From Spirochaetia bacterium (GTDB lineage: Bacteria > Spirochaetota > Spirochaetia > CADAEX01), in the NCBI GenBank assembly GCA_963662795.1, contig OY759746.1:1120001-1184000 (forward strand): a stretch of DNA of 64,000 nucleotides, given 5' to 3'. Positions 3,609-34,662 of the stretch are shown here, piece after piece; position 1 is the stretch's first letter, and the number at the start of each line of letters is the position of its first letter. Below the pieces are notes generated by a model that was not told where the DNA came from, made no database searches, and saw nothing but the letters and a program-made list of their open reading frames with translations. The translations under genes were made by a program, and so were the position numbers.

Positions 3609-4040
3609 ATGGATAATGTAACTGAGAACAAAATGGAATATATAGTAATTGCTTTTTTACTTATTCTTATAATAGTACTGGCAGGAATAAAGCTCGGTTC
3701 CGCCGGTAATAATGCTCCTGATAATGCAGGAAAGCCCTCTTTAGAGGATAAACCCTCCGGAGAAGAAAAACCATCAAAGTTTTGCCCCATCTGCGGCTCT
3801 GCGCTTAAAAAGGGAGAAACAGTAAAATCAAAGGTATATCCTGGGCGAGGAGTGGACAGCCTGATGGATGTTTACGGCTGTCCCAGATGTATTCCGCCGG
3901 AAGGCAGGGAGAAAAGAATATGCCCTGTGTGTAAAAAAGAGCTTCCTCCTGACGGATATGTTATCGGCCGCTATTTTGTACGTCCGGGAAAGAAAAGACA
4001 TCTGCATGTACTTGGCTGCACACTCTGCAGAAAAGGATAA
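3609..4040 (+). CDS. Membrane-anchored hypothetical protein with four CxxC motifs
   Basis: N-terminal hydrophobic helix; CPIC, CPRC, CPVC and CTLC. Confidence 0.7.
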   Translation: MDNVTENKMEYIVIAFLLILIIVLAGIKLGSAGNNAPDNAGKPSLEDKPSGEEKPSKFCPICGSALKKGETVKSKVYPGRGVDSLMDVYGCPRCIPPEGREKRICPVCKKELPPDGYVIGRYFVRPGKKRHLHVLGCTLCRKG

Positions 4041-4107
4041 AAAAGGAGGGCACCCCTTATAAAGAGAAATGCCCTCTAAAACCAGCCTTGAATTCCGGAT
4101 TATAAAC

Positions 4108-5757
4108 TTATCTGGTAAGCCAGAGTATCCTGTCCGCAATATATGCTACATGTTCGTTTATCCTGTTAAAATAATTTATCAGGTCTAAATGGACAGACGA
4201 TGTTCCGATCGATTCTTTAAGCCCTTTCTGGAGTCTCTCTATATGAAGTCTTTTGAATCTTGTTTCATCAAGTTCTGCGTACTTTTCTCCGATCTTCTTT
4301 GCCGCAACCGAATCTTCATTAATAAGAGCTTCCACAAGTCTTTCTATATTTTCATTGACCTTTCCGTGAAGCTCCTTAAGTTCTTTAAGACCCTCAGCTG
4401 AAAAAGTCAGGTCCTGATCAATCATTTTTCTCGCCAGTACCATTATATTTTTATCAATCACATCCCCGATTGATTCAAGTTCATTTTCGATATACAGAAA
4501 ATTGATACTTCTCTTGGAGTCTTCTACTCCCATCTCCTTCTGGGATATTTTTGCAAGAAAGAGGATTATTGTCTTGTGGAGAAGATCAACCTTTGAGTCT
4601 GTATCACAGATTTCCCTTATTACTTTCGGGTCTTTTTTAATAAATGCAAGCTCAACCTTGCTGAACATCTCCTTGATAAGGTCCGCAACAACCAGAATTT
4701 CTTTTTTAGACATTTCAAGCGCGATTTCGACACTTCCGTCAATCAGCTGTTCATGGAGATATTTAACACTGAACGGTTTTTCACTTTCCTTCGGAGGAAC
4801 CATTTTCACAAACAAACCGACAATAAAATCAAGAAAAGGGATGATGATTATATGATTTATTATGGGCATGAATGTAAAACCTACAGCTATTTCCCTGGCC
4901 AGGCTGTCAGTATTCAACACTGTGGTTGTGAACCATTTAATCATCCATATGAAAAGACGCTCACCGTTAAAAGGAATTATCAGGAGAATATATACCCAGA
5001 TTACTCCTATTGCCTGAAAGAAAACATGTACGTAGGCAGATCTTTTTGCTTCCCAGTTAAGGGCCAGACTCCCGAGTACAGCAGTGATACATGTCCCTAC
5101 CGCAGCTCCAAGGTTTATAGGAACAGCCTGTTCAAGGGTAATTGTCCCTGCCATAGCCATCGCGATTGTAAGGCCGCTTGTCGCACCTGAAGACTGGATT
5201 ATCATTGTAAAGAAAAGACCAAGCAATATACCCAGGGCAGGTGTTTCAACCCGCATCATAAGATCCATAAAAGGCTTATATTCCCTTAACGGCTTTAAAG
5301 AGTCGGACATCATATTCATACCGAGAAAAAGAAGACCGAATCCAAAAATCGCAAGGGCTGTATTATTGCCTTTTTTGGTTTTTGCGACAAGCGATGTAAA
5401 AAAACCGCCCGCAATGATGATAGTCGCGAATTTTGATATGGAAGGGAACGCAATCAGATGGGCCAGAAATGTTGAACCAAGTTCAGATCCCAGTGTCACG
5501 GCAAGACTCTGCTGAAAAGTCATAAGCCCCGCCCCTACAAGCGCTGCCTCAAGCACTGTTGTTGCTGATGATGACTGATTTACCATTGTGACACCAAGCC
5601 CTGTCAGGTAGCCCCTGAACCTGCTTTTTGTAAGTGTCAGCATGACTGACTTCATTTTCTCGCCGGCGATTGAAGTCAGATTTTTATTCATGACTATCAT
5701 GCCGTAAAGAAAAACAGCAAGTCCTCCTATTAGAGTGAACAAATTCCAGATACTCAT
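4108..5757 (-). CDS. Na+/phosphate cotransporter with C-terminal PhoU domains (NptA/YjbB type)
   Basis: Two QSSSA/QSSGA repeats, GGLAVFLYGM, LGAAVGT, and PhoU-like ELESIGDVID. Confidence 0.92.
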   Translation of the reverse strand: MSIWNLFTLIGGLAVFLYGMIVMNKNLTSIAGEKMKSVMLTLTKSRFRGYLTGLGVTMVNQSSSATTVLEAALVGAGLMTFQQSLAVTLGSELGSTFLAHLIAFPSISKFATIIIAGGFFTSLVAKTKKGNNTALAIFGFGLLFLGMNMMSDSLKPLREYKPFMDLMMRVETPALGILLGLFFTMIIQSSGATSGLTIAMAMAGTITLEQAVPINLGAAVGTCITAVLGSLALNWEAKRSAYVHVFFQAIGVIWVYILLIIPFNGERLFIWMIKWFTTTVLNTDSLAREIAVGFTFMPIINHIIIIPFLDFIVGLFVKMVPPKESEKPFSVKYLHEQLIDGSVEIALEMSKKEILVVADLIKEMFSKVELAFIKKDPKVIREICDTDSKVDLLHKTIILFLAKISQKEMGVEDSKRSINFLYIENELESIGDVIDKNIMVLARKMIDQDLTFSAEGLKELKELHGKVNENIERLVEALINEDSVAAKKIGEKYAELDETRFKRLHIERLQKGLKESIGTSSVHLDLINYFNRINEHVAYIADRILWLTR

Positions 5758-5895
5758 TATTCTTCTCCTGTTGTATTAATTACGGAAACCCGGATTCCCG
5801 AATGTTTCACGATAAGCAAATTTCACTGATGCAAAACTCATAAATTTATATTGCATCTGAATTTTCAGTTTCTTAGGTGCTTTTAGAGCATGCAG

Positions 5896-6492
5896 CTAAA
5901 CTGCAGCACCAAGATTAATTTTTGTCAGTGAATTAAATATTCGTTCATTTATCTGGTTTAGTTTTTCAAAAAAATCCCAGTTTAATAATGAATTACGGCT
6001 GTCCTGATCCTGCCGGTTAAGTCTTAAAAACTCAACAAAGGATTTCTGCAGGTTTCTATTATCCGCAGATATTTCCTCAATAAACAATCTGCTGTCTGAA
6101 ACAGTACCCGGCAGGATCTCAGTAAAATATTTTTTTATTTTTTCAAGGATAAGGATTTCCTGTTTTAACAGTAAATCAAAAGAAATACGATTTCCGGCAA
6201 TCCTGATTTTTTCGGTAAAAATAACCATCTCAGAAAAAAGGGATTTTAATTCTGTTTCAATTGAAAAAAAATCTTTCCACCAGAAGGGAAGAATATAATC
6301 ATCCATTGAATTTACTACTGCATAAAAATATTCTGAAAACTCATTTTCATTACGTTCAAGCTCTTCAGCACTCTTGCCGGTATTCACACTGACAGCAAGC
6401 TGGATGAGCTTATTGAGAGAAGCTTCTGCTACTTCTTCAAGTTTTGCCTTTTTTCCAAATAGATTTTTTTCAAACGGTATATTGATTTTCAT
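5896..6492 (-). CDS. Hypothetical protein, degenerate DUF47/PhoU-like
   Basis: About 200 aa and helical. YILPFWWKDF aligns with DUF47 FITPxDREDI. SD AGGAG. Confidence 0.5.
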   Translation of the reverse strand: MKINIPFEKNLFGKKAKLEEVAEASLNKLIQLAVSVNTGKSAEELERNENEFSEYFYAVVNSMDDYILPFWWKDFFSIETELKSLFSEMVIFTEKIRIAGNRISFDLLLKQEILILEKIKKYFTEILPGTVSDSRLFIEEISADNRNLQKSFVEFLRLNRQDQDSRNSLLNWDFFEKLNQINERIFNSLTKINLGAAV

Positions 6493-6558
6493 ATATTCTC
6501 CTGATATTTTTGCAAATTATTCCGGCTTGTCCGGAAAGAAAAAGCTCCATAATATAGT

Positions 6559-6593
6559 GATAAATGCCGGATTTAACAAATCCGGCATTTATC
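6559..6593. repeat. Perfect 16-bp inverted repeat
   Basis: GATAAATGCCGGATTT-AAC-AAATCCGGCATTTATC. Confidence 0.9.
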
Positions 6594-6667
6594 GTACAGG
6601 AACTTACTCTATAGCTTTATCCGGCAAAACCGGCAAAACTCCATTACTTTATCCATCAAACCCATCG

Positions 6668-7312
6668 TCAAAGATTTGTAGCGATATAAATTTTCCCAAG
6701 TACACCCTGTATCTCTTCGTTTGATGAATTTATCTGTTCAAAAAGTTCAAGAATTTTCATTCTTGATCCTGGATCTCCGGATCTTTCTTCATAAATTGTG
6801 TTAAGCCTTGAAAAATATATTTTCATAAATTCTTTCATCGCATACTGGTTATTAACCATTATCTGATAAGCGTATTTTCTGTTTACCGAATATTCATTGA
6901 TAAAATTTACGATGTTACGAAGTATTTTTTTCTCATGCTCATAAAACGAAGCATAGGAATCTTCATTTTTATAAATCTGTATTTTATTGAACACCATTAC
7001 TATCTGATTCAGGAGCTTTCTTGTATAATCACTAATCAGGAGTAGCTCATTCCAGCATAAAGGCAGGTAGTGTTTCCTGTTAATAATTTCAACTATTTTT
7101 CCGGTTTGATTTTCCATCGCAGTTTCATAATCATATATTTTGTTTGCTGTGATGAACGGGTCAAAATCATTGCTGCTCTTTTCCATAATCCCGATTACAG
7201 ATAGAACAATATCAATATTCTCAGTTATAGATTTTTCCAGATCTGCCTTTTTTCTGAATATATTATTAAACATCTTTTTTTCCCTCAACAAAGTTATGCC
7301 GACCGAGTCCAT
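6668..7312 (-). CDS. Hypothetical protein, degenerate DUF47/PhoU-like
   Basis: KIYDYETAMENQTGKIVEIINRKHYLPLCWNEL follows the DUF47 pattern. SD GGAGG. Confidence 0.5.
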   Translation of the reverse strand: MDSVGITLLREKKMFNNIFRKKADLEKSITENIDIVLSVIGIMEKSSNDFDPFITANKIYDYETAMENQTGKIVEIINRKHYLPLCWNELLLISDYTRKLLNQIVMVFNKIQIYKNEDSYASFYEHEKKILRNIVNFINEYSVNRKYAYQIMVNNQYAMKEFMKIYFSRLNTIYEERSGDPGSRMKILELFEQINSSNEEIQGVLGKIYIATNL

Positions 7313-7341
7313 TTTTTTCCTCCAGTAAACTCATTTATCTA

Positions 7342-7359
7342 TTGCATAATCCGTGCCAG
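7342..7359 (-). promoter_or_regulatory. Sigma-54 (-24/-12) promoter
   Basis: CTGGCACGGATTATGCAA on the minus strand (GG-N10-GC), about 30 nt before the ATG at 7312. Confidence 0.85.
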
Positions 7360-7520
7360 AAAACAAAGAGTGACGTTTAATTTTTACCTATTTTATTTTA
7401 AATAATATAAATACTTACATAATAATGAGTTATAGAATTTATTAGTGTGTATACCTATCAATAATTATAATTTTGAATAAGAATGGTAAATTATGAAAAC
7501 ATGTTTAATAACACTGCAAT

Positions 7521-7558
7521 TGTAAAATTTCTTTTCATGCATGTAAAAAGAATATACA
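7521..7558. promoter_or_regulatory. Tandem putative enhancer (UAS) dyads
   Basis: TGTAAAATTTCTTTTCA and TGTAAAAAGAATATACA, 21 bp apart, upstream of the sigma-54 promoter. Confidence 0.55.
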
Positions 7559-7583
7559 CATAATGTTCACGCGATCTGCTTTT

Positions 7584-8984
7584 TCAGGTATCCCCGGATT
7601 CCTTCGTCTCTTCCGGCAGATTCATTTTTTTTGCAAGAGTAACCCTGCTTATACCGAGTATTTTAGCCATGGCTGACTTATTAAAATTCTGCTCCCGGCC
7701 TATCCTGTCTATCATTATTTTTTCCAGTTTGTCATACAGGAGCGGTAAAAGATTATCAGAAGTCCTGTGTTCATTACAAAAATAATTAACAGCCTTCTCC
7801 AGTAAATTCAGCGGCGGCATACTTACAAGCCGCACCTGCATATCATGCAGAGACAGGGATGGTCCCTGTGCGTTTATACATATACTTGTAAGCAGATTTT
7901 CCAGCTCTCTCACGTTACCAGGCCAGTCATACGCGGTAAATTCAGACATAAGATCACTGGCTATCGACGTAAATATCTTATTTAATTTATATGATGCATT
8001 CTTCAGGAAAAAATCAGCAAGCACCGGAATATCTTCTTTCCTGTCCCTCAATGGGGGAATTACAATTTTTGCAACATTTATCCTGTAATATAAATCTTCG
8101 CGAAAACGGCCTGTTTTAACCTCATCATGCAGGTTTCTGTTTGTCGCGGTTATTACCCTTGCCTTTAGTTTTATGTTTTTAAGGCCGCCCATCCGCTGAT
8201 ATTCCTTCTCCTGAAGTACCCTTAGAAGTTTTGTCTGAATCTGCAGCGGCATGTCGCCGATCTCATCCAGGAAAATTGTCCCCTCACCCGCTGCTTCAAA
8301 CTTGCCGATTTTAAGCGATACTGCGCCTGTGAAAGCCTGCGGCTCATGACCGAAGAGTTCATTATCAAGAAGGGATTCGGTCAGCCCGGAACAGTTCACC
8401 GCGATAAAAGGTTCATTTTTTCTGTTGCCGTTAAAATGCAGCGCCCGGGCCAGAAGTTCTTTCCCGGTTCCGCTCTCCCCTGTGATATGCACAACAACAT
8501 CATTATTAACAAGCCGTCCTACGGATTTAAATACATCCTGCATAAGAACCGAATTCCCGATAATTTTTTTCAGTTCATAATTTCTGATATTTTCAGATCG
8601 GATAGTGTTAACATATTTACTCAATTTTCTGGATTCGACAGCCCGTTTCGCCAGAATTGATATTTTATCAATATCAAGCGGTTTCTCTATATAATCATAA
8701 GCACCAAGTGAAGTTGCCTCAATTATTGTTTCAAAATTTCCATGCGCTGTAATCATGATAACCGGGACACCAGGGTCCAGTTTTTTTAGGGATTTCAGAA
8801 TGGCAAGACCGTCTTCACCCGGCATTCTGTAATCAAGAAACACAAGATCCACTTCACGGCTTGAAAAAATATCAAGACCTTCTTTACCGTTATATCCATT
8901 AAAAACTTCATGTTCACTGCTGAATAATTGAGTAAAGCTTTTCTGTATATTTTTATCATCATCTATAACAAGTATTGCCGCCAT
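7584..8984 (-). CDS. Sigma-54-dependent response regulator (NtrC family)
   Basis: Receiver (VIDDD, LDYRMP, KP), AAA+ (GESGTGKE, QAFTGA, FLDEIGD, FREDLYYR, WPGNVREL) and Fis-type HTH. Start placed at MAAILV. Confidence 0.95.
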   Translation of the reverse strand: MAAILVIDDDKNIQKSFTQLFSSEHEVFNGYNGKEGLDIFSSREVDLVFLDYRMPGEDGLAILKSLKKLDPGVPVIMITAHGNFETIIEATSLGAYDYIEKPLDIDKISILAKRAVESRKLSKYVNTIRSENIRNYELKKIIGNSVLMQDVFKSVGRLVNNDVVVHITGESGTGKELLARALHFNGNRKNEPFIAVNCSGLTESLLDNELFGHEPQAFTGAVSLKIGKFEAAGEGTIFLDEIGDMPLQIQTKLLRVLQEKEYQRMGGLKNIKLKARVITATNRNLHDEVKTGRFREDLYYRINVAKIVIPPLRDRKEDIPVLADFFLKNASYKLNKIFTSIASDLMSEFTAYDWPGNVRELENLLTSICINAQGPSLSLHDMQVRLVSMPPLNLLEKAVNYFCNEHRTSDNLLPLLYDKLEKIMIDRIGREQNFNKSAMAKILGISRVTLAKKMNLPEETKESGDT

Positions 8985-8994
8985 ATCCAGCCCC

Positions 8995-10755
8995 TTAAAC
9001 AATTGGAATCTTATCACTGGTTCTGTAAGGGAGAATTACCCTGAACACAGTTTCATGTTTATTACTTTCAACCTGAATTGTTCCGTAGTGTCTTTCTATA
9101 ATCAATTTTGTTAACGCAAGACCTAACCCGGTACCATCTTTCTTTGTAGTGTAAAAAGGTTCGAATATTTTCCTTATATTTTCATCAGGAATTTCGCTTC
9201 CGGTATTTCTGAATTCCATGACAACGTTTGATTCCTTTATTTTAGTGGAGATATTAAGAAATCCTCCGTCAGGCATTGCCTGAATTGCATTGATTATAAA
9301 ATTTATAAAGCAAATACGTATTTTTTCTCCATCCAGATATACTGCAGGAAGTCTATTTTCAAGATTGCATTCAAGCTTTATATTCTGATGCTCAATATTA
9401 TACTTATACTGATTAACAATATTAAGCAGTATCGAATTAATATCATTTTTGGAAAAATGCATAGGCCCCGGTTTTGAAAACTCAAGTAAATCCTTTACAA
9501 GGTTATTAATTCGGTCAATTTCCTCGAGAATCGCGTTTACTTCCTGAATTCCTCCCTTATCAGAAAGATATCTGCTGCGGATTATCTGAGACATCATTTT
9601 TATTGAACTTAAAGGATTTCTGATTTCATGGGCAAGACCGGCCGACAGTTGTCCGACTGCCGCAAGTTTGGCAGACTTTATCATATCATCCTGAAGTTTT
9701 ATTATCTGTTTATTGTACTTGTGAATCTTTCTGGACAGGTTATTGATGCTTTCCGCTATTATCCTGAATTCATCATTGGATTTTATGTCAACAATAGGAT
9801 CATCACTGCTGAGGCTGAAATTATTAATACCGTCTATGATTTTGCCGAGAGATGTATTTATGTTATTCGCAAGAACCAGATAAGCTAAAAGGGAAAGCGT
9901 GAAACCTATCATAATCATCAGGAAAAGCAGATTACCCATATAAGAAAAATACTGATCGTTGCTTTTTTCCTTAATAAACAGATTGATTGCTCCCCAGTAC
10001 CTGTCCTCTTCCGAGTATAGGGCTTTAAGCATAAAATAGTATTTATTACCCTCAATTTCCTCTTCAAATACAAGTCTGTCTTTTTCCTGTAACTGCTTAA
10101 TCCTGTGATCTTCAATTATTTCAAATCCCTGATACGTAGAGATAATTTTGCTGTTTCCCCAGTAAATACCGTTATCCAGCCCTGTAAGTTTTCTCATATT
10201 TTCTACCAGGTCTTTAGAGAAAAGCGATCCAATCATTAAAAGGCTTATAATCTCCCCGTTTTTCTCCACAGGGGCTACCGCACGTATGGCTAACCCTGAT
10301 TTTCCGCTTTCATAGCTTACAATATTTTTACCGGCAAGCCCTGCCTTTACTATGTTCTGGTCTATTTTCAGGTCACCGCTTTTTGCCGGGTCATGCCCTC
10401 TGATGAGAACTGTTCCGTCAGTCTTTTCAACTTCTATAATATCAAAAATTCCCATCCTGTAAAAATTGCTTAACCGCTTTTCAAGAAGATCAAGGTTGCG
10501 GTTCGATATAAGATCAATTATTTCACTGTCTTTTGATAAGGTTTTAACCGCATTCAGACAGTCATCTTCCTTGAACATAATTTCGTTATAGTAAGCGGTT
10601 ATGCTGTCTTCAAGCCTGACGATATAGGCCTTCTTTACTGAGCTTTTTATCAGCCAGTAACCTATTGAAACAGAAGTAATTGTCGTTACAAGAATTATAA
10701 AAATAAATGAGATGAATATTTTAATATTAAGTCTGTACCTGAGAAAGTAACCCAT
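8995..10755 (-). CDS. Membrane sensor histidine kinase (Cache-like periplasmic domain, HAMP)
   Basis: Two TM segments, H-box LAHEIRNPL, N-box NAIQA and G-boxes GTGLGL. Confidence 0.93.
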   Translation of the reverse strand: MGYFLRYRLNIKIFISFIFIILVTTITSVSIGYWLIKSSVKKAYIVRLEDSITAYYNEIMFKEDDCLNAVKTLSKDSEIIDLISNRNLDLLEKRLSNFYRMGIFDIIEVEKTDGTVLIRGHDPAKSGDLKIDQNIVKAGLAGKNIVSYESGKSGLAIRAVAPVEKNGEIISLLMIGSLFSKDLVENMRKLTGLDNGIYWGNSKIISTYQGFEIIEDHRIKQLQEKDRLVFEEEIEGNKYYFMLKALYSEEDRYWGAINLFIKEKSNDQYFSYMGNLLFLMIMIGFTLSLLAYLVLANNINTSLGKIIDGINNFSLSSDDPIVDIKSNDEFRIIAESINNLSRKIHKYNKQIIKLQDDMIKSAKLAAVGQLSAGLAHEIRNPLSSIKMMSQIIRSRYLSDKGGIQEVNAILEEIDRINNLVKDLLEFSKPGPMHFSKNDINSILLNIVNQYKYNIEHQNIKLECNLENRLPAVYLDGEKIRICFINFIINAIQAMPDGGFLNISTKIKESNVVMEFRNTGSEIPDENIRKIFEPFYTTKKDGTGLGLALTKLIIERHYGTIQVESNKHETVFRVILPYRTSDKIPIV

Positions 10756-10817
10756 ATTGGATTTTATGATATTTGAGAATAAATGTATATATTTCTGTTA
10801 ATTCACACGATCAGACT

Positions 10818-10890
10818 CTAACACAATTTTAAAGATCCTAACTGAATTTTAACATTTTTTATAGACATATATCAATCTATCCGCTATAAT
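10818..10890 (+). promoter_or_regulatory. Sigma-70 promoter with upstream 11-bp-spaced direct repeats (pho-box-like)
   Basis: TAGACA-N17-TATAAT at 10862-10890, preceded by CTAACACAATTTTAA and CTAACTGAATTTTAAC. Confidence 0.55.
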
Positions 10891-10934
10891 CGTTCAATTT
10901 TACAGGAACAAATTTTAATGAAGGAGTAGACTCT

Positions 10935-11579
10935 ATGGCTAAATTGTGGAAAAAACAGGAATCAGTTTTTTCAAAGATTAAGATTTATTTTGAAAAAGCG
11001 GATTTGACACGCGATGTATTTAAAAAAACTATTGCAGATCTAATCAGACAGACACCTGACGTCGATTTTGGAGAGGCAGTGGAACTGGTACATGCGGCAG
11101 AACATGAAGCAGATATCAAGAGAAGGGAAGTTATTACGGAACTTTACCGGAAAGCTTTGATACCGGGATCCAGAGGTGATGTTCTTGGGCTGCTGGAAAA
11201 TTTTGATCAGCTTCCCAATACTTTCCAGAAGATATGCAACCAAATATACTTCCAGAATGTAGTATTTCCTGAAAACTTCAGGGAAAGAATCATTGACCTT
11301 ATAAATGTAAATATTGATGCATATAATCTCACCAAAGATGCAGCATTCTGTCTTTTTGATGAGGCGGATCTGGTAAATAAAACTGAACTCATTTGCGAAA
11401 AGGAAAGAGAATCAGATGCAAGGGAAAGAGGACTTACACGTGATATCTTTAACACGGATATGGAACTTGCCCTTAAAATGCTTTACAAGCAGATTATCAT
11501 TTCCATAGGTAATATTTCAGACATAGCAGAAGATATTTCAGACAGGGTTGAAATAGCTGTCATAAAAAGGAGACTATAA
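10935..11579 (+). CDS. DUF47 family phosphate transport regulator
   Basis: AEHEADIKRREV, LIPGSRGDVLGL, ERESD and IGNISDIAEDISDR; lies directly upstream of pit. Confidence 0.9.
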   Translation: MAKLWKKQESVFSKIKIYFEKADLTRDVFKKTIADLIRQTPDVDFGEAVELVHAAEHEADIKRREVITELYRKALIPGSRGDVLGLLENFDQLPNTFQKICNQIYFQNVVFPENFRERIIDLINVNIDAYNLTKDAAFCLFDEADLVNKTELICEKERESDARERGLTRDIFNTDMELALKMLYKQIIISIGNISDIAEDISDRVEIAVIKRRL

Positions 11580-11582
11580 TAA

Positions 11583-12524
11583 ATGTTCAGGCTGTTAAGC
11601 GGAATATTTATGGGCTGGTCTCTAGGTGCCAATGATTCCGCTAATATATTTGGCACGGCTGTCTATTCAAGAATGATCAGGTTCAAGACAGCTTTATTCT
11701 GGCTTTGTATTTTTATTGTTTTAGGGTCAATGCTGCAGGGCGCGGCAGGGATGCATACATTAAGCGGTCTCGTTGTGCAGAATATGAATACCGCTTTTAT
11801 TACAGCGTTTGCTGCTGCATTGACTGTTACTGTTATGACGTTTTATGGTCTTCCGGTATCAACTTCCCAGGCAATGGTCGGGGCGATAATGGGGATTGGG
11901 GTTGTAATCGGACAGATTGATTTTTCAAAACTTCCAAAAGTTTTTGCATGCTGGGTTGGTACACCGGTAGGATGTGTTATTGCAACAGTAATACTGTATC
12001 CGCTTCTGAGTAAGCTTTTTTCAATTCTTAAAATGAATATATTCAGGCAGGATTCTGTACTCAGATGGGGACTTATAGCAGTAGGCTGTTACGGGGCATA
12101 TTCTTTGGGAGCCAATAACGTAGCTAATGTCACAGGCATATACATCGAAACAGGTCTTCTTAATGTAACCCAGGCGCTGATTCTCGGCAGCCTCAGCATC
12201 TGTATCGGGGCAATTACCTACAGCAGAAAAGTAATGATGACAGTCGGGGAAAAGCTTGTAAGACTTGACGCCTTCAGCGCATTCGTTGCTGTTCTCTCAA
12301 TGTCGATAATATTAAATATTTATGCAGTAGTAGGCGTACCGGTTTCTTCGTCACAGGCGATAGTCGGAAGTGTACTAGGTATAGGTATTGTTAAAGGTGT
12401 TAAAACCATCAACATAAGGACCTTAATAAATATTGTAATAGGATGGCTGACAACTCCAGTAATTGCAATGATAGTATCAATTGCATTATATGTCGGAGCA
12501 ATAAAAATACTTGGGATAAACTGA
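11583..12524 (+). CDS. pit: Inorganic phosphate transporter (PiT family)
   Basis: GANDSAN and GANNVAN signatures; PVSTSQA and PVSSSQA. Confidence 0.92.
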   Translation: MFRLLSGIFMGWSLGANDSANIFGTAVYSRMIRFKTALFWLCIFIVLGSMLQGAAGMHTLSGLVVQNMNTAFITAFAAALTVTVMTFYGLPVSTSQAMVGAIMGIGVVIGQIDFSKLPKVFACWVGTPVGCVIATVILYPLLSKLFSILKMNIFRQDSVLRWGLIAVGCYGAYSLGANNVANVTGIYIETGLLNVTQALILGSLSICIGAITYSRKVMMTVGEKLVRLDAFSAFVAVLSMSIILNIYAVVGVPVSSSQAIVGSVLGIGIVKGVKTINIRTLINIVIGWLTTPVIAMIVSIALYVGAIKILGIN

Positions 12525-12539
12525 TTATCATTTTAATAC

Positions 12540-12575
12540 ATAAGCCTGCGGCTGTTTACCGGAGGCTTATTTTTT
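12540..12575 (+). terminator. Terminator after pit
   Basis: ATAAGCCT...AGGCTTAT stem followed by a T-run. Confidence 0.7.
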
Positions 12576-12591
12576 GCTACCTTAAAAATAT

Positions 12592-13086
12592 ATGAATGAA
12601 GAAATAATCCAGCTTTGCGACCTGAAGGGAACCCCCTGCGGCACCTCTCCCAGATCAGTCTGCCACAAAGATCCGTCACTTATACAGATGGTAGTTCACC
12701 TTATGGTAATGAATTCAGGAGGCAGCTTTTTTCTTCAAAAAAGGGCTTTTTCCAAAGAGGCCTTTCCCGGATACTGGGACACATCTGTCGGAGGGCACGT
12801 AAGCGGCGGGGAAAACCTGATGCAGGCGCTGAAACGCGAGGCTGATGAGGAGATAGGGATTGAATTAATCCATGCAGATTTTGTCTTTAAAAAGCTGTAT
12901 TTTATGGAAAATGAAACAGAGATGTCTTTCTTTTATAAAACTGTTTATGACGGTCCTTTCAGGATAGACAATGACGAAGTCACAGAAGGACGCTTCTTTA
13001 CAGCCGGAGAAATAAGTCCCCTGATAGGCACGAATATATTTACTCCAAGCCTTGAAAACGGGTTTTTGGCTATTTCAGGCAATTAA
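12592..13086 (+). CDS. NUDIX hydrolase (IPP isomerase/YfcD-like)
   Basis: LQKRA, PGYWDTSVGGHV and Nudix box GENLMQALKREADEEIG. Confidence 0.85.
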   Translation: MNEEIIQLCDLKGTPCGTSPRSVCHKDPSLIQMVVHLMVMNSGGSFFLQKRAFSKEAFPGYWDTSVGGHVSGGENLMQALKREADEEIGIELIHADFVFKKLYFMENETEMSFFYKTVYDGPFRIDNDEVTEGRFFTAGEISPLIGTNIFTPSLENGFLAISGN

Positions 13087-13988
13087 AACATAGGAGTCGG
13101 ATAAATATTTGACCACTGATTAACAAGGTCCAGAAAATCCTTGAGCGGTTTTGAAAAATACTTGTCGCTGTGATATATCATGTAATACTTTCTCCTAAAA
13201 TTTTTGTCCTCAACCGGAACAGCGACAAGCCGGCCGCTGGCAACTTCTTCCGTAACCATATTATTGGATATAAAAGCAACACCCATTTCATGCTGGACAA
13301 GCCGCTTTATTGCTTCACTGTTTGATATTTCATAATTCACATTCACATCAATTTTATACTTTCTTATAAAACTGTCTGTTATTTTCCTGGTCACAGACCC
13401 TTTCTCGTGAAGAATCAGGTTGCATCCCTGGAGGTCGGCAATCTCGAGCCTGTCCCGTCTGGTCAGCGGGAAAGCAGGGTTTGCGATCAGGACAATATTG
13501 TCCTCAAGAACTTCATGCACAGATATTTTGGGATTCTGGATCGGTTTTGATATGAATCCTATATCATTATTCAGGTCAGCTGTATTCTCAATAATACTGT
13601 CATTATGCCCAATCATGACTGAAATATTTATATCCTGATTGGTTCTTTTATAGTATTTAATGATGTAGGGAATATAATAGGCCCCGAAGCTTTCACAGGA
13701 AAGGATATTGATTTTACCCTTGCTGTATTGCTGAAAATCCCTGATACTTTCCTCAGCCTGGCTTTCCATATCAAATATTTTATCTGCGATACTGTATAAA
13801 TGCTCGCCGGCATCAGTCAGAACAACTTTTTTACCGATAATATCGAGGAATTTAAGGTCATAATGACTCTGGAGCTGTTTAATCTGTTTGGTAACAGCAG
13901 GCTGAGTGATGCAAAGAACATCAGCGGCTTTTGTGAGACTTTTATACTTTGCTGTATAATAAAATGTCTTTAAATGATAGAGATTCAT
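13083..13988 (-). CDS. LysR family transcriptional regulator
   Basis: SLTKAADVLCITQPAVTKQIKQL HTH, LTDAG and substrate-binding domain. Confidence 0.93.
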   Translation of the reverse strand: MNLYHLKTFYYTAKYKSLTKAADVLCITQPAVTKQIKQLQSHYDLKFLDIIGKKVVLTDAGEHLYSIADKIFDMESQAEESIRDFQQYSKGKINILSCESFGAYYIPYIIKYYKRTNQDINISVMIGHNDSIIENTADLNNDIGFISKPIQNPKISVHEVLEDNIVLIANPAFPLTRRDRLEIADLQGCNLILHEKGSVTRKITDSFIRKYKIDVNVNYEISNSEAIKRLVQHEMGVAFISNNMVTEEVASGRLVAVPVEDKNFRRKYYMIYHSDKYFSKPLKDFLDLVNQWSNIYPTPMF

Positions 13989-14024
13989 AACTATTGTTCA
14001 TGTTAATGATTACCCAACCGGCAG

Positions 14025-14741
14025 TCAAGTATATTTTAAGATATTATCAAGCTCCAGAAGCGCTTCAAGCCGGTTTATCTCGGGAACCTGAAAAGCGGGC
14101 TCAGGCCAGTTTCTTTCAACTGAATAATGCTTCAGCCAGACAGGGTTTAGGCCGGCGTTTTTACTGCCTTCAATGTCAATTTTCATATCATCCCCGATAA
14201 ATACCGCTTCTTCTCCCTTTACTCCCAGTTTTTCAAGTATTATCCGGAAAGGGACCGGGTCAGGTTTTGCAGGGATATCACCTTCCCCGGCAATAACAAT
14301 AGCGTCAAACAAGACTTCAAGCTTTCTATATTCTTCGTTATCAAGAGCTTTTGTGCTCCCGTCTTTCTGCGAGTTTGAAACCATACCCAGTTTATATTTT
14401 GTTTTAAGTTTTTCAAGTACACTGACCGTTTCGGGAAAGAGACGCATGCTGCTCCCTACAATCTTCCAGTATTCATCTTCAAGCTGCATCAAAAAACCTT
14501 CATCAACCGAAGCTTTATACTTTGAACACAGCGTTATCCATACATTTTTCCTTGAAAAATCAGATCTGCTAAAATGTTCTTTTCTCTCTTTACGGTAATC
14601 CTCAATATATTCATCCCAGGAGATGCCGATGGTTCCGATTCTTTCAAACAGATCTCTTTGTGATTTTTTTTCTGCAGTTTTATATCCGTCTGCGGCTGAT
14701 CCAAGAGTCTGAACAAAATCAAAAACTATGGCTTTTATCAT
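14025..14741 (-). CDS. HAD-superfamily hydrolase (subfamily IA, atypical motif I)
   Basis: IVFDFVQT, MVSN, KPDP and FIGDDMKIDIEG. Start placed at the ATG after SD AGGAG. Confidence 0.85.
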   Translation of the reverse strand: MIKAIVFDFVQTLGSAADGYKTAEKKSQRDLFERIGTIGISWDEYIEDYRKERKEHFSRSDFSRKNVWITLCSKYKASVDEGFLMQLEDEYWKIVGSSMRLFPETVSVLEKLKTKYKLGMVSNSQKDGSTKALDNEEYRKLEVLFDAIVIAGEGDIPAKPDPVPFRIILEKLGVKGEEAVFIGDDMKIDIEGSKNAGLNPVWLKHYSVERNWPEPAFQVPEINRLEALLELDNILKYT

Positions 14742-14806
14742 ATTCTTCACTCCTGTTTATATTCACACTGCCGGAATATTTACATTTTTTTCCATAGCCG
14801 GATTAC

Positions 14807-14833
14807 AAAAACGGGCTCCTCAGGGAGCCCGTT
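14807..14833 (-). terminator. Terminator after aldehyde dehydrogenase
   Basis: AACGGGCTCC-CTGA-GGAGCCCGTT followed by Ts on the minus strand. Confidence 0.8.
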
Positions 14834-14865
14834 GCAGTTAGTTCGCTAAAAATCAATCTATAGCA

Positions 14866-16257
14866 TTAACCAATCAGTTTTTTAGCCTTTTCAAGATATG
14901 GACCATAAACTTCTTCATCTGTCGGCACATACTCAGGTATAGGAACAGCCATTCTCGTGGTATTCATAAAATGCCTGTAGTTGATGTTATCGCTGTGACT
15001 GTTGCCTGTCCATGTTCCGCAGCCGATTGTTGTTGTAAATTCGTGACCGGCGAAAAAGCTGCCGCTGTTTACAATTGTATTCGGCATATTGATATTTACC
15101 CTTCCGGTTGGAATATATTCGGCAAGCCTTTCCCACTGCTGGGGTTTTGCGGAATGAAGTGCGCATGAATGCCCGATTCCGGAGAAGAGCAGATTCTTTT
15201 TGAGAGTTTTGATTTCCTCTTCAAAATCTGTCCATGTCCATACGGTAAGGACAAGGGAGAGCTTTTCATTTGAAAACATGTCTTCAGGTCCGATTTTTTG
15301 CCCTTTTACCATAATGAATTTTGTCCCTTCAGGAACAGAAATGCCTGCAATTTTTGCAATATTCTGAACAGAAGATGCAACAATATCCCTGTTAAGGGTG
15401 TGTCCGTCAGGCCACATTGCTTTTCTGAGTTTTTCCCTGTCTTCATCGCTTAAAAGGAATCCGCCTACTTTTTTAAGCTCTTCCATCATTTTGTCATATA
15501 CTGAAACATGAATCGATACAGCATTTTCTGATGAGCATGATGTTGCATTGTCAAAAATCTTTGATCTCATAACACAGTCAGCAGCTTTTGCAAGATCAGC
15601 TGAAGGATCAATAATTGCCCTTACATTGCCTGCACCTACGGTGATGGCTGGAGTACCGGCTGCATGAACAACCTTGATAAGGGCTTTTCCGCCTGTAGCG
15701 ACTGCAAAATCACATGTTGACATGAGTTCTACTGTTTTTTCGTTTGTAGGCTCTTCAATGCAGAGCATCAGATCCTCAGGAGCTCCGAATGCCTTGAGTG
15801 CTTTTCTTCCATATTCAACAGTTCTGAATGTAGACTGCTTTGTTCTCGGATGGGGCGAGCAGATCATGGCATTCCTTGTTTTAAGAAGTGAAAGGCCGAT
15901 AAAACAGGTTGTTATCGTCGGGTTGGTACAGGGGACGACATTGGCAACAACACCGATCGGTTTGGCGTATGTCTTGATTCCCTTTTCTTTATCATCTTTA
16001 ATGAGACCGCAGGTTTTCTTCCCTTTCATGTCCCACATTATTCCTCTTATCTTGTTAGCCTTTTTTACCTTGTCTTCATAAACACCCATTCCGGATTCGT
16101 CAACTGCAAGTTTTGCAACTTCGCGGGCAAAGTCTTCCTTCTGCCACTGCCATGCGACTACCGCAAGCATTTCATCAACCTTTTCCTGGGGCCAGAATTC
16201 TATTACCTCAAATGCTTTTCTGGCTCTGGCATACATCTCTTTAATATTATCAGCCAT
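14866..16257 (-). CDS. CoA-acylating aldehyde dehydrogenase (SauS/SucD-like)
   Basis: PIGVVANVVPCTNP, ATGG, GAGN, SKIFDNATSCSSEN (catalytic Cys), EKLS, GHS and GCGTW. Confidence 0.85.
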   Translation of the reverse strand: MADNIKEMYARARKAFEVIEFWPQEKVDEMLAVVAWQWQKEDFAREVAKLAVDESGMGVYEDKVKKANKIRGIMWDMKGKKTCGLIKDDKEKGIKTYAKPIGVVANVVPCTNPTITTCFIGLSLLKTRNAMICSPHPRTKQSTFRTVEYGRKALKAFGAPEDLMLCIEEPTNEKTVELMSTCDFAVATGGKALIKVVHAAGTPAITVGAGNVRAIIDPSADLAKAADCVMRSKIFDNATSCSSENAVSIHVSVYDKMMEELKKVGGFLLSDEDREKLRKAMWPDGHTLNRDIVASSVQNIAKIAGISVPEGTKFIMVKGQKIGPEDMFSNEKLSLVLTVWTWTDFEEEIKTLKKNLLFSGIGHSCALHSAKPQQWERLAEYIPTGRVNINMPNTIVNSGSFFAGHEFTTTIGCGTWTGNSHSDNINYRHFMNTTRMAVPIPEYVPTDEEVYGPYLEKAKKLIG

Positions 16258-16285
16258 TTCCTTAAATCTCCTTGTTTACACCTGA

Positions 16286-16387
16286 CATTACCCCGGTAAT
16301 TTACCAGGGTAATGGTTGTTTTTCAGATACTTAAATTCCTGTTGTGCAGGTTTATAACTGCAGGACGTTTGTAAAAACATCCTGCAG
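16286..16387. repeat. Two intercistronic hairpins
   Basis: CATTACCCCGGTAA/TTACCAGGGTAATG (16286-16314) and CTGCAGGACGTTT/AAACATCCTGCAG (16358-16387), each with one mismatch. Confidence 0.7.
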
Positions 16388-16400
16388 ATTCATTAGAATA

Positions 16401-17465
16401 CTATTTTTTTGAAACACTGGCCTTTCTTGGGTCCTCAATAACATACGGTATAGAGTAAGCTGAACCTTTGAGTCTTTCCATTTCTTTCCAGCCTTTATCC
16501 CAATCCTTGGCAGTCTGATACTGTGTCCCTTTTTCCGGTCTTTCAGAAAGCGCAGGAACCGGCTTGTCAACCGGACCGTCATACCACTCTTTCGGAGTAA
16601 GTGTCTGGCCAAGAACGTCTGAAGATTCTCTTTCCATCTCTTCAATTGCATGGGAACCTGCAGCAAAGGCCCTTGTAACTGACAAAACACACCAGGCAGC
16701 ATCGCTTGAAAACTCAAGCTCCATCATTGCAGCTGACATTGCTCCTATCATATCGACTTCCACATAGCCAATCTTTTCCTTGGCAGCTTTAACTATTTCT
16801 TTCATAAGTGGAACATATCTGAGTTTTTTTACGCCTTTAAGTTTTTTCTCTGCAAAATCAAGAAGCTTTGAAGGTGTTGGATCTTTTACATAAAGATCTG
16901 AAACACCGAAATGGTCTTCATACTTGCATTCATCTACGCAAAGTTTTGCAGCATCTGCAAGACTCATTCCTTCTTCTACTTTTGCAGCATATTTTGCAAG
17001 CATCTTTCCTGTTGCGTCATATGAAGCATAGGAGTGGCCGAAAGCAAGAACTGAACCGCCGCAGGCCTGTGTTACATAAGACTTGCCTCTTGCGATAAGT
17101 CTTGCTATAAGGGCAGGATTTGAAAGTCCGTCTTCAAGGCCGAGAACCATTACATATTCAAGTACATCTTTCTCTTCCTTAAGAGGAATTCTTGCCTGAT
17201 AATCAATAAAGATAATATCACAAGTACCATAACCTGCTTCAACAAGTTCTGTTGTGTCATAACCTCTTGTGACAATCCTGTGGATATTCTTGTAGGCAAC
17301 TTCAGATACCCATTTAAATCCTTCACGGTTGTCCGGGGGAAGTGTACCGACCTCCCTGTTTGTATAGTCAAATTTCAACTTTGGACTTGCAAGGTTTCCA
17401 ATAGTAGGTCTCTTTGCAAATTTCATCTGTCCGATTCTTTCATCTGAATGTTTTACAGCGCCCAT
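16401..17465 (-). CDS. Citrate-synthase-fold / citryl-CoA lyase-like protein, subunit B (degenerate active site)
   Basis: W.SEV......IVTRGY, EDGLSNPA, KDPT and RAF...SHAIEE. Paralogous to the upstream gene and overlaps its stop. Confidence 0.65.
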   Translation of the reverse strand: MGAVKHSDERIGQMKFAKRPTIGNLASPKLKFDYTNREVGTLPPDNREGFKWVSEVAYKNIHRIVTRGYDTTELVEAGYGTCDIIFIDYQARIPLKEEKDVLEYVMVLGLEDGLSNPALIARLIARGKSYVTQACGGSVLAFGHSYASYDATGKMLAKYAAKVEEGMSLADAAKLCVDECKYEDHFGVSDLYVKDPTPSKLLDFAEKKLKGVKKLRYVPLMKEIVKAAKEKIGYVEVDMIGAMSAAMMELEFSSDAAWCVLSVTRAFAAGSHAIEEMERESSDVLGQTLTPKEWYDGPVDKPVPALSERPEKGTQYQTAKDWDKGWKEMERLKGSAYSIPYVIEDPRKASVSKK

Positions 17466-18349
17466 CTTTTATATTCTCCTGATTCTAACTGTTTCTTTGC
17501 ATAAGCCTGTCTTTCTGACATAGGAGGCACTTCCCTGTCTTCCGGACCCACATATTTGATCATGGCGAGGTCAAGCATCTGTACCATCGGTTCATTTCTT
17601 GATGCAGCCCAAGCCCTTCCTTTTTTAAGTGTATAAAGAGCGTGACATGCGCAGCTGAAACCTCTGGTCACACAGCCGATAACCCATGCTGCATTCGGAG
17701 CAAAACCCATATCAGCAAGTGCTACGTTTCCGGCTCCTACCATGTTAACTGCTACATAAGCTCTTCCTTCAGCAGCTCTTCTTGCGTAGAATTTCTCTTC
17801 AAGTGCTCTCTGGAATTTAAGGTAAACACCGCCTACTCCGAGTTCTTCCTGTTTGAGGTGTGTCGGTTCAGCTCTCGGATCACCGTCAAGGTGCTGGGGC
17901 TGTCCCATTCCCATAACCGCAAGGCCTGCATCCATGTACTCTGTTACGCATTCACCGGCAACCTGCTCAGGTGTTTTATCCTGTTTGACTGCCCTGTCAA
18001 GATATTTCTTGATCATGTATCCGTGAGCAGCTCCGGGTCCGTGCGCTCCGCCGAATGTCATTATTGATGATGCTACAGCCGCGGGAAGCATAGGGTGACC
18101 GTTAATAACTGCAATAGAACTTACTGCAGAAGGCGACATAGAGTGCTCAAGAAATTCAGCAACTTCGTAGTCAAGCATGGCTCTTTCATTTTCCGCAGGA
18201 ATCCTTCCCTGAAATAGCACAAACAGTGCGTCGGCAAAAGTGTAACCTGCCTCGGCAAGATCACTTACATTAAAACCCCTTAAAACTGTCTTTTCTTCTG
18301 TCTTGTAGGAAATGGCAGTTTTTCTCTGGATCAATGGTTTCCGATCCAT
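17453..18349 (-). CDS. Citrate-synthase-fold / citryl-CoA lyase-like protein, subunit A
   Basis: TAIS......VLRG, LFQGRIP, EHSMSPS, GGAHGPGA, GMGQ...DPRA and NMVGA; SD AGGAGG. Confidence 0.75.
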   Translation of the reverse strand: MDRKPLIQRKTAISYKTEEKTVLRGFNVSDLAEAGYTFADALFVLFQGRIPAENERAMLDYEVAEFLEHSMSPSAVSSIAVINGHPMLPAAVASSIMTFGGAHGPGAAHGYMIKKYLDRAVKQDKTPEQVAGECVTEYMDAGLAVMGMGQPQHLDGDPRAEPTHLKQEELGVGGVYLKFQRALEEKFYARRAAEGRAYVAVNMVGAGNVALADMGFAPNAAWVIGCVTRGFSCACHALYTLKKGRAWAASRNEPMVQMLDLAMIKYVGPEDREVPPMSERQAYAKKQLESGEYKRWAL

Positions 18350-29100: not shown

Positions 29101-29721
29101 TCAAAGCAGAATCATTGCTGTGTAACCGGCCGTTATCGGAATTATAAAATTATCATAATCACCAAGTGGAAATGCCTCTGTAACAGTTACCACAGCGGCT
29201 ATTATAATCGAAACACGGCTGTTTCCTGTTACTGTAAGCGAAGAAATATAAACAGCCAGAAAACACGCAAAACTTCCTTCAAAAGTCTTTCCGCCTGTAA
29301 ATGGTATTTTTATGCTCCCGAAAACCTTTCCCGCAACACTCGCCAGACCATCTCCGAATGCCAGCGCATAGATTGCTATCTTTGCGGCATTCTCCGGATA
29401 AAACAGCAGGGCGGCCATTGCACCAAGGGCCAGCGTCACCGGTCCGCCTGCAAATCTTCCCCTGTCTCTTTCCCTGAGAGCAAATTCCTTAATTCCTGAA
29501 ATAAAAGCCAGACTATACCCCTGGGCCCTTAGAAGTTCAGACCATGAATATATTATTGTACCGCCGCCAAGAAGAGCCAGTGCAAGTCCTCTGTCAAAAC
29601 CTGCCAGCAGCGGAACCAGCCCTATCAGCATATGTATGGTTTTTCTGAATAATTCTGTCCTGATTTCATCAAGTCCTGCGGTAAAATCTTTAACTGTTGT
29701 ACTAATTGCAATCTGATTCAA
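29101..29721 (-). CDS. Dolichol/phytol kinase-like cytidylyltransferase family membrane protein
   Basis: RKTIH, LAFGDGLASVAG, KTFEGS and DNFIIP. Confidence 0.8.
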   Translation of the reverse strand: MNQIAISTTVKDFTAGLDEIRTELFRKTIHMLIGLVPLLAGFDRGLALALLGGGTIIYSWSELLRAQGYSLAFISGIKEFALRERDRGRFAGGPVTLALGAMAALLFYPENAAKIAIYALAFGDGLASVAGKVFGSIKIPFTGGKTFEGSFACFLAVYISSLTVTGNSRVSIIIAAVVTVTEAFPLGDYDNFIIPITAGYTAMILL

Positions 29722-29847: not shown

Positions 29848-29893
29848 TATTATCATGTTAGTGTATAAATTATTATACACTAACATGATAATA
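29848..29893. repeat. Perfect 21-bp inverted repeat
   Basis: TATTATCATGTTAGTGTATAA-ATTA-TTATACACTAACATGATAATA. Confidence 0.9.
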
Positions 29894-31214: not shown

Positions 31215-31217
31215 GTT

Positions 31218-32117
31218 CTAACTCCTCAGTATTCTGTTAAGGATATCCATAAGGGCAAGAACACCTACCACTTTGCCGTTTTCGACTACAGGGATATGCC
31301 TTCTGTTGTTGTTTGTTATTTCAAGTGCTGCTTCAATAATCGATGAATCACGGCCCAGAACAATTGAAGGCTTTTTCATGATTTCATAAACCTTTATTTC
31401 ATCTTCTTTTCGAAAAAGCCTCTCAAGCGGTTCAAAAGATTTCAGAAATTTAAGGTTTCCCATTTTTGTGGCATAATCGGGGATACCCTCTTTTATTACC
31501 GTATTAAGATTTAATTCCCCGACAAAATTTCCTTCCCCGTCGATAACAGGCAGGTAGGTAACACTGTTTTTATAGAAAGTATCCACAAGCTCTTTAAGTG
31601 TAGCGTCGGGATGTGTTGAAAAGAATTTTTCCGACATTATACTCTCGACAGTTACCTCTTCCTTAACCTTGACATTTTTCTTTTCAATCAGGCTGACAAA
31701 TGCTTCCCCGCTTGAAGATAACAACAGTTCTTCATAGAAATCTTTATCTCTTGATATTTTTATCAGTGAAGATAGAGCATTCAGATAAATATTGGAGACA
31801 GTTTTTGATGTCAGGATAAGAACTACGGTCCTGACTTCCCTTTTCCCGTCCATGAATAATTTTTCAGGAAGTAAAATACCGATCAGTATATCATCAAAAT
31901 TATCAAGCCGGGCATGGGGGATTGCTATTCCCGTATCAAAGGTTGTCCCGCCGAGCTCTTCCCTCTCTCTTATCGTCTTTTCAATATAATCCTGTTCAAT
32001 ATTGAATTTATAATATTTTTTAAAATTAACAAGAATTTCAGCTATTGCATCTTCCTTGTTCCGGGCCGGACTATTGATAATAATATAGTCAGGCCTGAGC
32101 AAACTGGATAGTTTCAT
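31218..32117 (-). CDS. PTS EIIA (Fru/Ntr-type) - CBS pair fusion protein
   Basis: REELGGT..DTGIAIPHAR (phospho-His intact) followed by two CBS motifs. Confidence 0.85.
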   Translation of the reverse strand: MKLSSLLRPDYIIINSPARNKEDAIAEILVNFKKYYKFNIEQDYIEKTIREREELGGTTFDTGIAIPHARLDNFDDILIGILLPEKLFMDGKREVRTVVLILTSKTVSNIYLNALSSLIKISRDKDFYEELLLSSSGEAFVSLIEKKNVKVKEEVTVESIMSEKFFSTHPDATLKELVDTFYKNSVTYLPVIDGEGNFVGELNLNTVIKEGIPDYATKMGNLKFLKSFEPLERLFRKEDEIKVYEIMKKPSIVLGRDSSIIEAALEITNNNRRHIPVVENGKVVGVLALMDILNRILRS

Positions 32118-34660: not shown

Positions 34661-34662
34661 AG

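Follow-up and report, generated by a model that had tools for sequence, protein, structure and literature searches.

A candidate sigma-54-dependent two-component circuit beside phosphate-transport genes in a Spirochaetia bacterium

A sensor histidine kinase and an NtrC-type response regulator lie among phosphate-transport genes in a stretch of DNA from a Spirochaetia bacterium (contig OY759746.1; the 64-kb stretch as a whole is called the window), where they probably form a second phosphate-related control circuit, one that works beside rather than instead of the textbook PhoR/PhoB system (PhoBR). Fifty-seven open reading frames (ORFs) of the window were scanned for known protein families. The seven genes of the locus stand where an earlier note on this DNA had placed them, and Pfam and NCBIfam profiles confirmed their families, with a reservation about ORF-A and ORF-B that is taken up below.

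4108..5757, minus strand: NptA-type Na+/inorganic phosphate (Pi) cotransporter with C-terminal PhoU domains, 549 amino acids (PF02690 twice, PF01895 twice; NF037997 above cut-off)
5896..6492, minus strand: ORF-B, 198 amino acids, a divergent ORF-A paralogue (by homology to ORF-A)
6668..7312, minus strand: ORF-A, 214 amino acids, a predicted six-helix PhoU/DUF47-fold protein (AlphaFold2 model, Foldseek and profile)
7584..8984, minus strand: NtrC-type response regulator/enhancer-binding protein, 466 amino acids (Pfam/NCBIfam)
8995..10755, minus strand: sensor histidine kinase with two transmembrane helices, periplasmic dCache_3, HAMP, HisKA and HATPase_c domains (Pfam/NCBIfam)
10935..11579, plus strand: canonical DUF47/PitR accessory protein (PF01865, E 4e-23; TIGR00153 below cut-off)
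11583..12524, plus strand: PiT-family (PHO4) transporter, PitA-like (PF01384, E 1e-53)

The order described in the earlier note is borne out: kinase and regulator, the kinase gene ending 10 bp before the regulator start, then a -24/-12 promoter with tandem dyads, then ORF-A, ORF-B and NptA, which we infer to form one three-gene transcription unit. Judged by Pfam and structure comparison, every gene of this target unit and of the divergent DUF47-PiT unit encodes either a phosphate transporter or a PhoU-fold protein. The control elements of the target unit are as follows.

7359-7343, minus strand: sigma-54 -24/-12 promoter CTGGCACGGATTATGCA, the best match of the window
7521-7537 and 7542-7558, no strand assigned: two 17-bp dyads of the form TGTA-N9-T(A/T)CA, a candidate enhancer found by motif scan
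7547-7519, minus strand: sigma-70-like site matching 10/12 consensus positions and overlapping both dyads
6559..6593, minus strand: perfect 16-bp hairpin without a U tail in the ORF-A/ORF-B spacer (sequence and folding)
4046..4076, minus strand: intrinsic terminator with a 12-bp stem and a T tail, at the end of the ORF-A/ORF-B/NptA unit

The promoter, which the earlier note had called near-consensus, has a single mismatch to the sigma-54 consensus. It ranks first of the 10 sites in the window with up to 3 mismatches, 0.1 sites as good being expected per window in 30 Markov simulations, and a scan of the locus's four intergenic regions showed no other sigma-54 site. It lies 31 bp upstream of the ORF-A start, and its geometry predicts a transcription start at 7332, 20 nucleotides ahead of an ATG that is itself preceded by a ribosome-binding site, GGAGG. 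This start of ORF-A, at 7312, is preferred to an alternative at 7273, which the searches and the fold prediction used. Both the promoter and the dyads fall inside the 271-bp gap between the regulator gene and ORF-A. The dyads are 21 bp apart (two helical turns) and lie at about -189 to -226 from the predicted start, with a spacer of 81% AT between them and the promoter. The tandem TGTA-Nx-TACA pair is unique in the window (spacers of 5-13 scanned). The tandem dyads of the earlier note are present, and their standing against shuffled sequence is borderline. A sigma-54 promoter and plausible enhancer sites thus sit directly downstream of the regulator gene and ahead of two PhoU-fold genes and NptA, and in this respect the enhancer-binding-protein circuit proposed in the earlier note is supported.

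Within the target unit, neither ORF-B nor NptA was found to have a sigma-54 or sigma-70 promoter in front of it, except for a 9/12 sigma-70 match within the hairpin. The spacer that holds the hairpin (6493-6667, 175 nucleotides) folds with z = -5.8. In Rfam, no family covered 6559-6593, and the one weak match (E 0.71, below the gathering score) lay within the DUF47 gene. A dispersed repeat was considered and rejected, a second copy not being found in the window. The hairpin is a candidate mRNA processing, stability or attenuation element.

The regulator combines a receiver (PF00072), a Sigma54_activat domain (PF00158; 217.8 bits, E 1e-64) and a C-terminal Fis-type helix-turn-helix domain (HTH_8, PF02954), all above cut-off, and keeps the receiver aspartate, Walker A and B, the arginine finger, sensor II and the helix-turn-helix motifs. 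Its receiver-AAA+-HTH_8 architecture is not that of an OmpR-family winged-helix protein. On sequence grounds, activity as a sigma-54 activator is likely but not certain. Nor is the kinase of the PhoR type: it scores 91.5 bits against the TIGR02966 cut-off of 334.2, carries dCache_3 and has no cytoplasmic PAS domain. Its best NCBIfam matches are AtoS (250 bits) and ZraS (197 bits), below every equivalog cut-off, and its HAMP match is also below cut-off. By the domains that the two proteins contain, the circuit is not a PhoBR member.

A search with the sensor region of the kinase returned 49 other kinases at 39-78% identity (one of them a fragment), followed by a sharp drop to two chemoreceptors; in the resulting family of 50 proteins, the four that carry a taxon name (4/4) are assigned to Spirochaetaceae or Spirochaetota. 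The sensor is modelled as a double Cache domain (predicted local distance difference test, pLDDT, 90), whose nearest solved folds are CitA (Z 19.8) and DctB (Z 18.7), with DcuS also among them. For the distal module, the best match is citrate-bound CitA (Z 20.1, root-mean-square deviation, rmsd, 1.6), followed by DctB/DcuS. In an alignment of 40 kinases (39 of the 49 relatives and the window's own), R119, H121, D128, K130, Q133, E149, G151, S153, G154 and R158 are invariant in 40/40. The two chemoreceptors whose sensor is related (P0057 and P0058) retain every one of these residues except Q133. Such invariance across 40/40 kinases and 2/2 chemoreceptors is as expected for a ligand pocket, and the residues mark a putative anion pocket of the CitA/DctB kind without naming the anion. 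The glycine loop of CitA and the arginine that follows it align with the kinase sensor, and the next CitA lysine is replaced by Val in 40/40 kinases. R119 and H121 may be equivalent to CitA residues, a correspondence that does not come from the alignment and for which literature support was not found. Sensor domains related to that of the kinase also occur in chemoreceptors, including one on a Rossellomorea plasmid (L081, 7689-9656), and a plasmid search with the sensor gave matches in chemoreceptors only. Since P0057 and P0058 keep the pocket motif, the ligand of the kinase family is probably a chemoattractant as well.

The two genes that open the target unit had been labelled DUF47-like, a label that holds at the level of fold for ORF-A and by homology for ORF-B, and fails at the level of profiles, as neither protein matched a PhoU or DUF47 Pfam family or any NCBIfam family. 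The AlphaFold2 model of ORF-A has six helices (pLDDT 91), and its best Foldseek match is the PhoU-like protein 3L39 (TM score 0.80). A second structure comparison also ranks 3L39 first (Z 20.7, rmsd 2.7 over 196 residues); the next four matches are PhoU-family chains at Z 17-19, with plant ALMT channels at 15-17. A profile of the family finds 3L39 independently (E 0.02, second of 6 matches, behind a designed coiled coil). On this model, ORF-A has the duplicated three-helix PhoU/DUF47 fold, and ORF-B, 27% identical to it (E 7e-10), is predicted to share that fold; atlas matches of ORF-B include PhoU_div clusters at 0.88-0.89, taken as a lead only.

Twenty-eight distinct relatives of the pair were found, 23 of which were aligned with the two window proteins. 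None of these 25 sequences matches PF01865 or PF01895 (E up to 0.1), and the family aligns with the window's own DUF47 protein at an hhalign E of 0.38. Trp87 is invariant, Pro84 and Lys207 are each kept in 24/25, and an NRKY motif completes the signature. Acidic residues are also retained at E63 (22/25), E67 (acidic in 18/25), D/E89 (25/25) and E192 (20/25), positions that were mapped through a weak alignment to 3L39. Compared with DUF47/PhoU_div proteins (PitR; 3L39 is BT4638 in the Protein Data Bank), the family shares the six-helix fold, a Pro-x-x-Trp-x-Asp/Glu hinge that aligns with the DUF47 hinge, and the first acidic pair, retained as ExxxE. It differs in its low identity (12-13%), in lacking PF01865/PF01895, in its own invariant Trp and NRKY, in the apparent replacement of the second-repeat acids, and in being linked to NptA and a sigma-54 system, not to PiT: ORF-A and ORF-B adjoin nptA upstream, and PiT has a DUF47 protein of its own. 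ORF-A, ORF-B and their 28 relatives thus apparently make up an undescribed family, as yet modelled by neither Pfam nor NCBIfam. Fitting by sequence none of the three described clades of PhoU-like accessory proteins, they may represent a fourth. In the tree, ORF-B groups with a single protein (P0076), and the tandem pair may therefore be lineage-specific. A plasmid search with ORF-A gave no match, and a 200-amino-acid relative (P0078) whose source name is 'signal transduction histidine kinase' was treated as a mis-annotation. A predicted complex of ORF-A with the cytoplasmic dimer of the kinase scored 0.00, which is uninformative either way. Two-hybrid assays did not pick up contacts of this kind for Staphylococcus aureus PhoU and PitR (PMC11705898).

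NptA, the third product of the unit, has the QSSS/QSSG motifs. In two pairwise comparisons it is closer to the Staphylococcus aureus Na/Pi cotransporter (30% identity, 229 bits) than to Escherichia coli YjbB (23%, 136 bits), which favours import and disfavours an exporter of the YjbB type.

On the other side of the kinase gene, the divergent DUF47-PiT pair claimed in the earlier note is present, the DUF47 gene lying directly upstream of the PHO4 transporter gene with a 3-bp gap. The transporter has GAND/GANN signatures, and its best NCBIfam match, the sulfate permease CysP, is below cut-off. Such a pairing is the standard PitR-PitA module, and the association between PhoU-like proteins and particular transporter families is a tight one (PMC13170248). 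A NUDIX hydrolase gene (12592-13086) follows directly after PiT on the same strand. Between the divergent units lie two overlapping promoter-like sites.

10846..10875, minus strand: sigma-70-like promoter of the kinase-regulator operon, 10/12 with an extended TG (consensus match only)
10862..10890, plus strand: sigma-70 promoter TAGACA-17-TATAAT of DUF47-PiT, 11/12, the best of 40 matches in 3900-12700

Upstream of DUF47-PiT neither a sigma-54 site nor a dyad was found. Sigma-54 control of the whole locus, as the earlier note had it, is not supported for this pair, which appears to be a separate sigma-70 unit beside the sigma-54 circuit. Pho boxes are direct repeats with an 11-bp period. TTAACA/TTHACA-like repeats with a period of 10-12 occupy the region that separates the start of the kinase gene from that of DUF47 (10767-10855, on either strand). 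Arrays of this kind in 10756-10934 gave p 0.005-0.02 in 6/30 uncorrected tests, and a Pho box was dropped after a motif-agnostic control (p 0.6, 150 shuffles).

How unusual this company is for a kinase was judged against a genome scan with a generic kinase motif, which supplied at least 80 unrelated loci (mean length 15.8 kb) whose kinases are non-orthologous (at most 38% identity). Among 80 such loci listed, NptA was near one (1/80) and DUF47-PiT near one (1/80), so that a kinase with both as neighbours is out of the ordinary, although the window had been selected as interesting. Contig data were at hand for 12 of the 28 ORF-A relatives (the other 16 had none). For three of the 12, the longest contig matches that of a kinase relative in size (11,748, 76,963 and 195,363 bp); these are all three of the ORF-A relatives on contigs of more than 10 kb, one of them only 11.7 kb. 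Conservation of the kinase/ORF-A neighbourhood is thus shown only indirectly, in 3/12 relatives.

We favour a local, ligand-induced circuit of the DctBD kind that controls one phosphate-transport module in response to a phosphate-type signal, besides any PhoBR system the cell may have, and give this reading a probability of roughly 0.45. Kinase and regulator would have a sigma-70-type promoter to themselves. The Arg/His/Lys-rich Cache pocket would bind an oxyanion in the periplasm, with phosphate or a small phosphorylated compound the likeliest, and binding would turn the kinase on, as ligands do in CitA and DctB; the kinase would then phosphorylate the regulator, presumably its cognate partner. 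The phosphorylated regulator would bind the two dyads, oligomerise and open the sigma-54 promoter at 7359-7343. A single transcript would carry ORF-A, ORF-B and NptA up to the terminator at 4046-4076, the internal hairpin setting their ratio, and by analogy to PitR and PhoU the ORF-A and ORF-B proteins may be transporter-linked accessory proteins, adjusting the flux through NptA or exerting feedback on phosphate signalling. The parts of this scheme differ in strength. The sigma-54 architecture itself (kinase and regulator made from sigma-70, the regulator acting at the dyads and the sigma-54 promoter, one transcript), which two of the rival readings share, is probable; a phosphorus oxyanion as the signal has about an even chance overall, most of it for an auxiliary circuit and a small remainder for one that replaces PhoBR.

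Several observations tell against the favoured scheme. Its signal had been deduced in the earlier note from the target genes only, and the nearest solved sensors, the citrate and C4-dicarboxylate receptors, bind carboxylates. The PhoU/DUF47 superfamily is defined by acidic E/D-xxx-D metal-binding motifs in both repeats, and the second-repeat acidic positions of 3L39 appear to be Asn or Lys in the ORF-A family (by the weak alignment), so that metal or phosphate binding is possibly altered. Against shuffles of the region, the dyads reach p 0.048 in a motif-specific test (5000 shuffles, the motif fixed after inspection) and 0.072 in a motif-agnostic one (1000 shuffles), and an integration host factor consensus with up to 1 mismatch was not found in 7340-7540. 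As to linkage, the other nine ORF-A relatives with contig data have no match, none of them lying on a contig longer than 7.7 kb, and the three matches come from close kin (65-78% sensor identity), are not independent and are uninformative on NptA. Loop 1 of the regulator reads QAFTGA instead of GAFTGA, positions 2-6 being intact, and position 1 is G in 42/42 activator motifs among the background loci listed. At this position, the available text of PMC3162934 gives N as validated and A, D, E, H and S as putative, and does not include Q.

The carboxylate affinity of the nearest sensors leads to the strongest rival, in which the sigma-54 architecture is the same but responds to a carboxylate, or to some other anion without phosphorus, so that the arrival of a carbon source would step up phosphate uptake. 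The closeness of the distal sensor module to citrate-bound CitA and to DctB/DcuS, with the CitA glycine loop and arginine aligned, speaks for it, as does the recurrence of the pocket motif in chemoreceptors with no phosphate gene nearby. AioSR supplies a precedent, being a sigma-54 system in a phosphate-gene neighbourhood that answers to another signal (PMC3834237). Set against this, the CitA lysine is Val in 40/40 kinases and an extra Asp-x-Lys pair is invariant. The target unit, moreover, holds no carboxylate transporter or catabolic gene, and systems of the CitAB/DctBD type usually control the uptake of their own ligand. This reading is unlikely; if it held, the locus would still connect sigma-54 signalling with phosphate transport in a way not reported before, though its interest would be more modest.

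The atypical loop admits a different reading, in which the regulator is not a working sigma-54 activator and instead binds the dyads so as to repress or modulate the sigma-70-like promoter at 7547-7519, or another activator serves the -24/-12 site. That sigma-70-like site overlaps both dyads, and TyrR, DhaR and HupR are NtrC-type proteins with altered loops that act via sigma-70 (PMC3162934). The critical residues of GAFTGA are, however, F and T (PMC3162934), and F, T, G and A are all intact here, while position 1 tolerates N and putatively five other residues. Four 10/12 matches to sigma-70 lie in the 8.8 kb scanned, two of them within genes, and the near-consensus sigma-54 site directly downstream of the regulator would be left without an explanation. 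We regard this reading as improbable.

The earlier note had gone further and proposed control by this system rather than by PhoBR. A system that replaces PhoBR as the master regulator of phosphate starvation and controls both transporters would agree with the scan of the 57 ORFs, in which no OmpR-type regulator and no Pho or Pst gene was found (nor a classical phoU in the window), and with the failure of the Pho-box-like repeat ahead of DUF47-PiT. PhoR/PhoP were not recognised in about a quarter of surveyed genomes (228/926), Spirochaetota among them; of the 17 spirochaete rows listed, those without them are five Borrelia, three Treponema and Turneriella (Data S1, PMC13170248). In the same listing, however, both proteins are present in 8/17 spirochaete rows, including 3/3 Spirochaeta, and the view of this genome is one of 64 kb. 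Two further points speak against this reading: DUF47-PiT has a sigma-70 promoter with neither sigma-54 site nor dyad, and the kinase, in contrast to PhoR, carries a sensor of the ligand type in the periplasm and lacks a cytoplasmic PAS. Replacement of PhoBR is very unlikely. Slimmest of all is the chance that the phosphate genes have simply gathered around a two-component pair with some other target, which the selection of the window for looking interesting and the AT-richness of ORF-A/ORF-B would suit (GC content 0.315-0.328; the window has 0.409, and NptA, the regulator and PiT are each at about 0.41), against the placing of sigma-54 site and dyads in the 271-bp gap, the 1/80 background for each transporter among the loci listed and the co-occurrence on 3/3 long contigs.

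The favoured circuit has clear counterparts among known sigma-54 systems. DctB/DctD, AtoS/AtoC, ZraS/ZraR and AioS/AioR likewise pair a Cache-type periplasmic sensor and an NtrB/AtoS-like kinase core with a receiver-AAA+-HTH regulator, and have tandem palindromes and a -24/-12 box next to the regulator gene. In AioSR, two palindromes and a -24/-12 promoter have the same layout as here (PMC3834237). The present locus differs from these systems in its targets, a Na/Pi transporter and PhoU-fold proteins, in its QAFTGA loop and in a distinct pocket motif. It resembles the PhoR/PhoB(P) systems with PhoU-Pst, PitR-PitA and NptA in that PitR-PitA and NptA with its PhoU domain, both present here, are among the three accessory-transporter pairs described (PMC13170248). 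It departs from them in having an enhancer-binding protein as regulator and a dCache kinase without PAS, and the window contains neither pst nor a classical phoU; nptA is also preceded by two additional PhoU-fold genes that stand alone, an arrangement not mentioned in the available text of PMC13170248. Salmonella PgtABC/PgtP and UhpABC/UhpT are alike in that a transporter of phosphorus compounds, not part of the Pho regulon, is under ligand-induced two-component control (PMC9306846). The regulator of the present locus is a homologue of PgtA, scoring 167.6 bits against a PgtA profile with a cut-off of 650. Here, by contrast, there is neither a PgtC/UhpC partner nor a major facilitator superfamily antiporter, and the available text of PMC9306846 does not say whether PgtA depends on sigma-54.

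In the literature covered, outside which most subscription journals lie, no description was found of NptA or PhoU-like genes under the control of a sigma-54 system; the word 'phosphate' has 0 occurrences in the main text of PMC6615313 and one, unrelated, in that of PMC12316311. In the standard model, PhoR is no direct sensor of phosphate and relies on three PhoU-like accessory clades (PMC13170248). The locus is a concrete candidate for another route of phosphate control, with a soluble sensor domain, a defined promoter and putative enhancer, and a PhoU-fold family missed by current profiles. If phosphate is the ligand, a function would be assigned to a Cache motif common to kinases and chemoreceptors; if it is sensed directly, sensing would be extracellular with ligand-on logic, unlike that of PhoR. 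The boldest version, a spirochaete-wide sigma-54 system that senses phosphate or phosphorylated solutes directly in the periplasm, through a conserved Cache pocket that chemoreceptors use as well, and that switches on NptA along with accessory proteins of a fourth PhoU-like clade, is doubtful.

Elsewhere in the window, a second sigma-54-like site (29772, minus strand, 2 mismatches) lies 51 bp ahead of an ORF without a Pfam match (29101-29721), and a perfect palindrome with 21-bp arms (29848-29893) lies upstream of it. A possible catabolic unit at 13083-18349 (minus strand) comprises a tandem pair of citryl-CoA-lyase-like genes, an acylating aldehyde dehydrogenase, a HAD hydrolase and a LysR regulator, and is divergent from citrate synthase; the dehydrogenase comes nearest to SauS (487 bits, cut-off 600). 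At 29940-39641 (minus strand), a V/A-type ATPase operon is followed by a phosphotransferase system (PTS) EIIA-CBS protein and a CitMHS/ArsB-type transporter. A dyad with the core TGTGAA-N4-TTCACA (43641-43666) stands directly upstream of a Rex-like gene (43686; PF06971 and PF02629); it resembles a Rex operator and suggests autoregulation.

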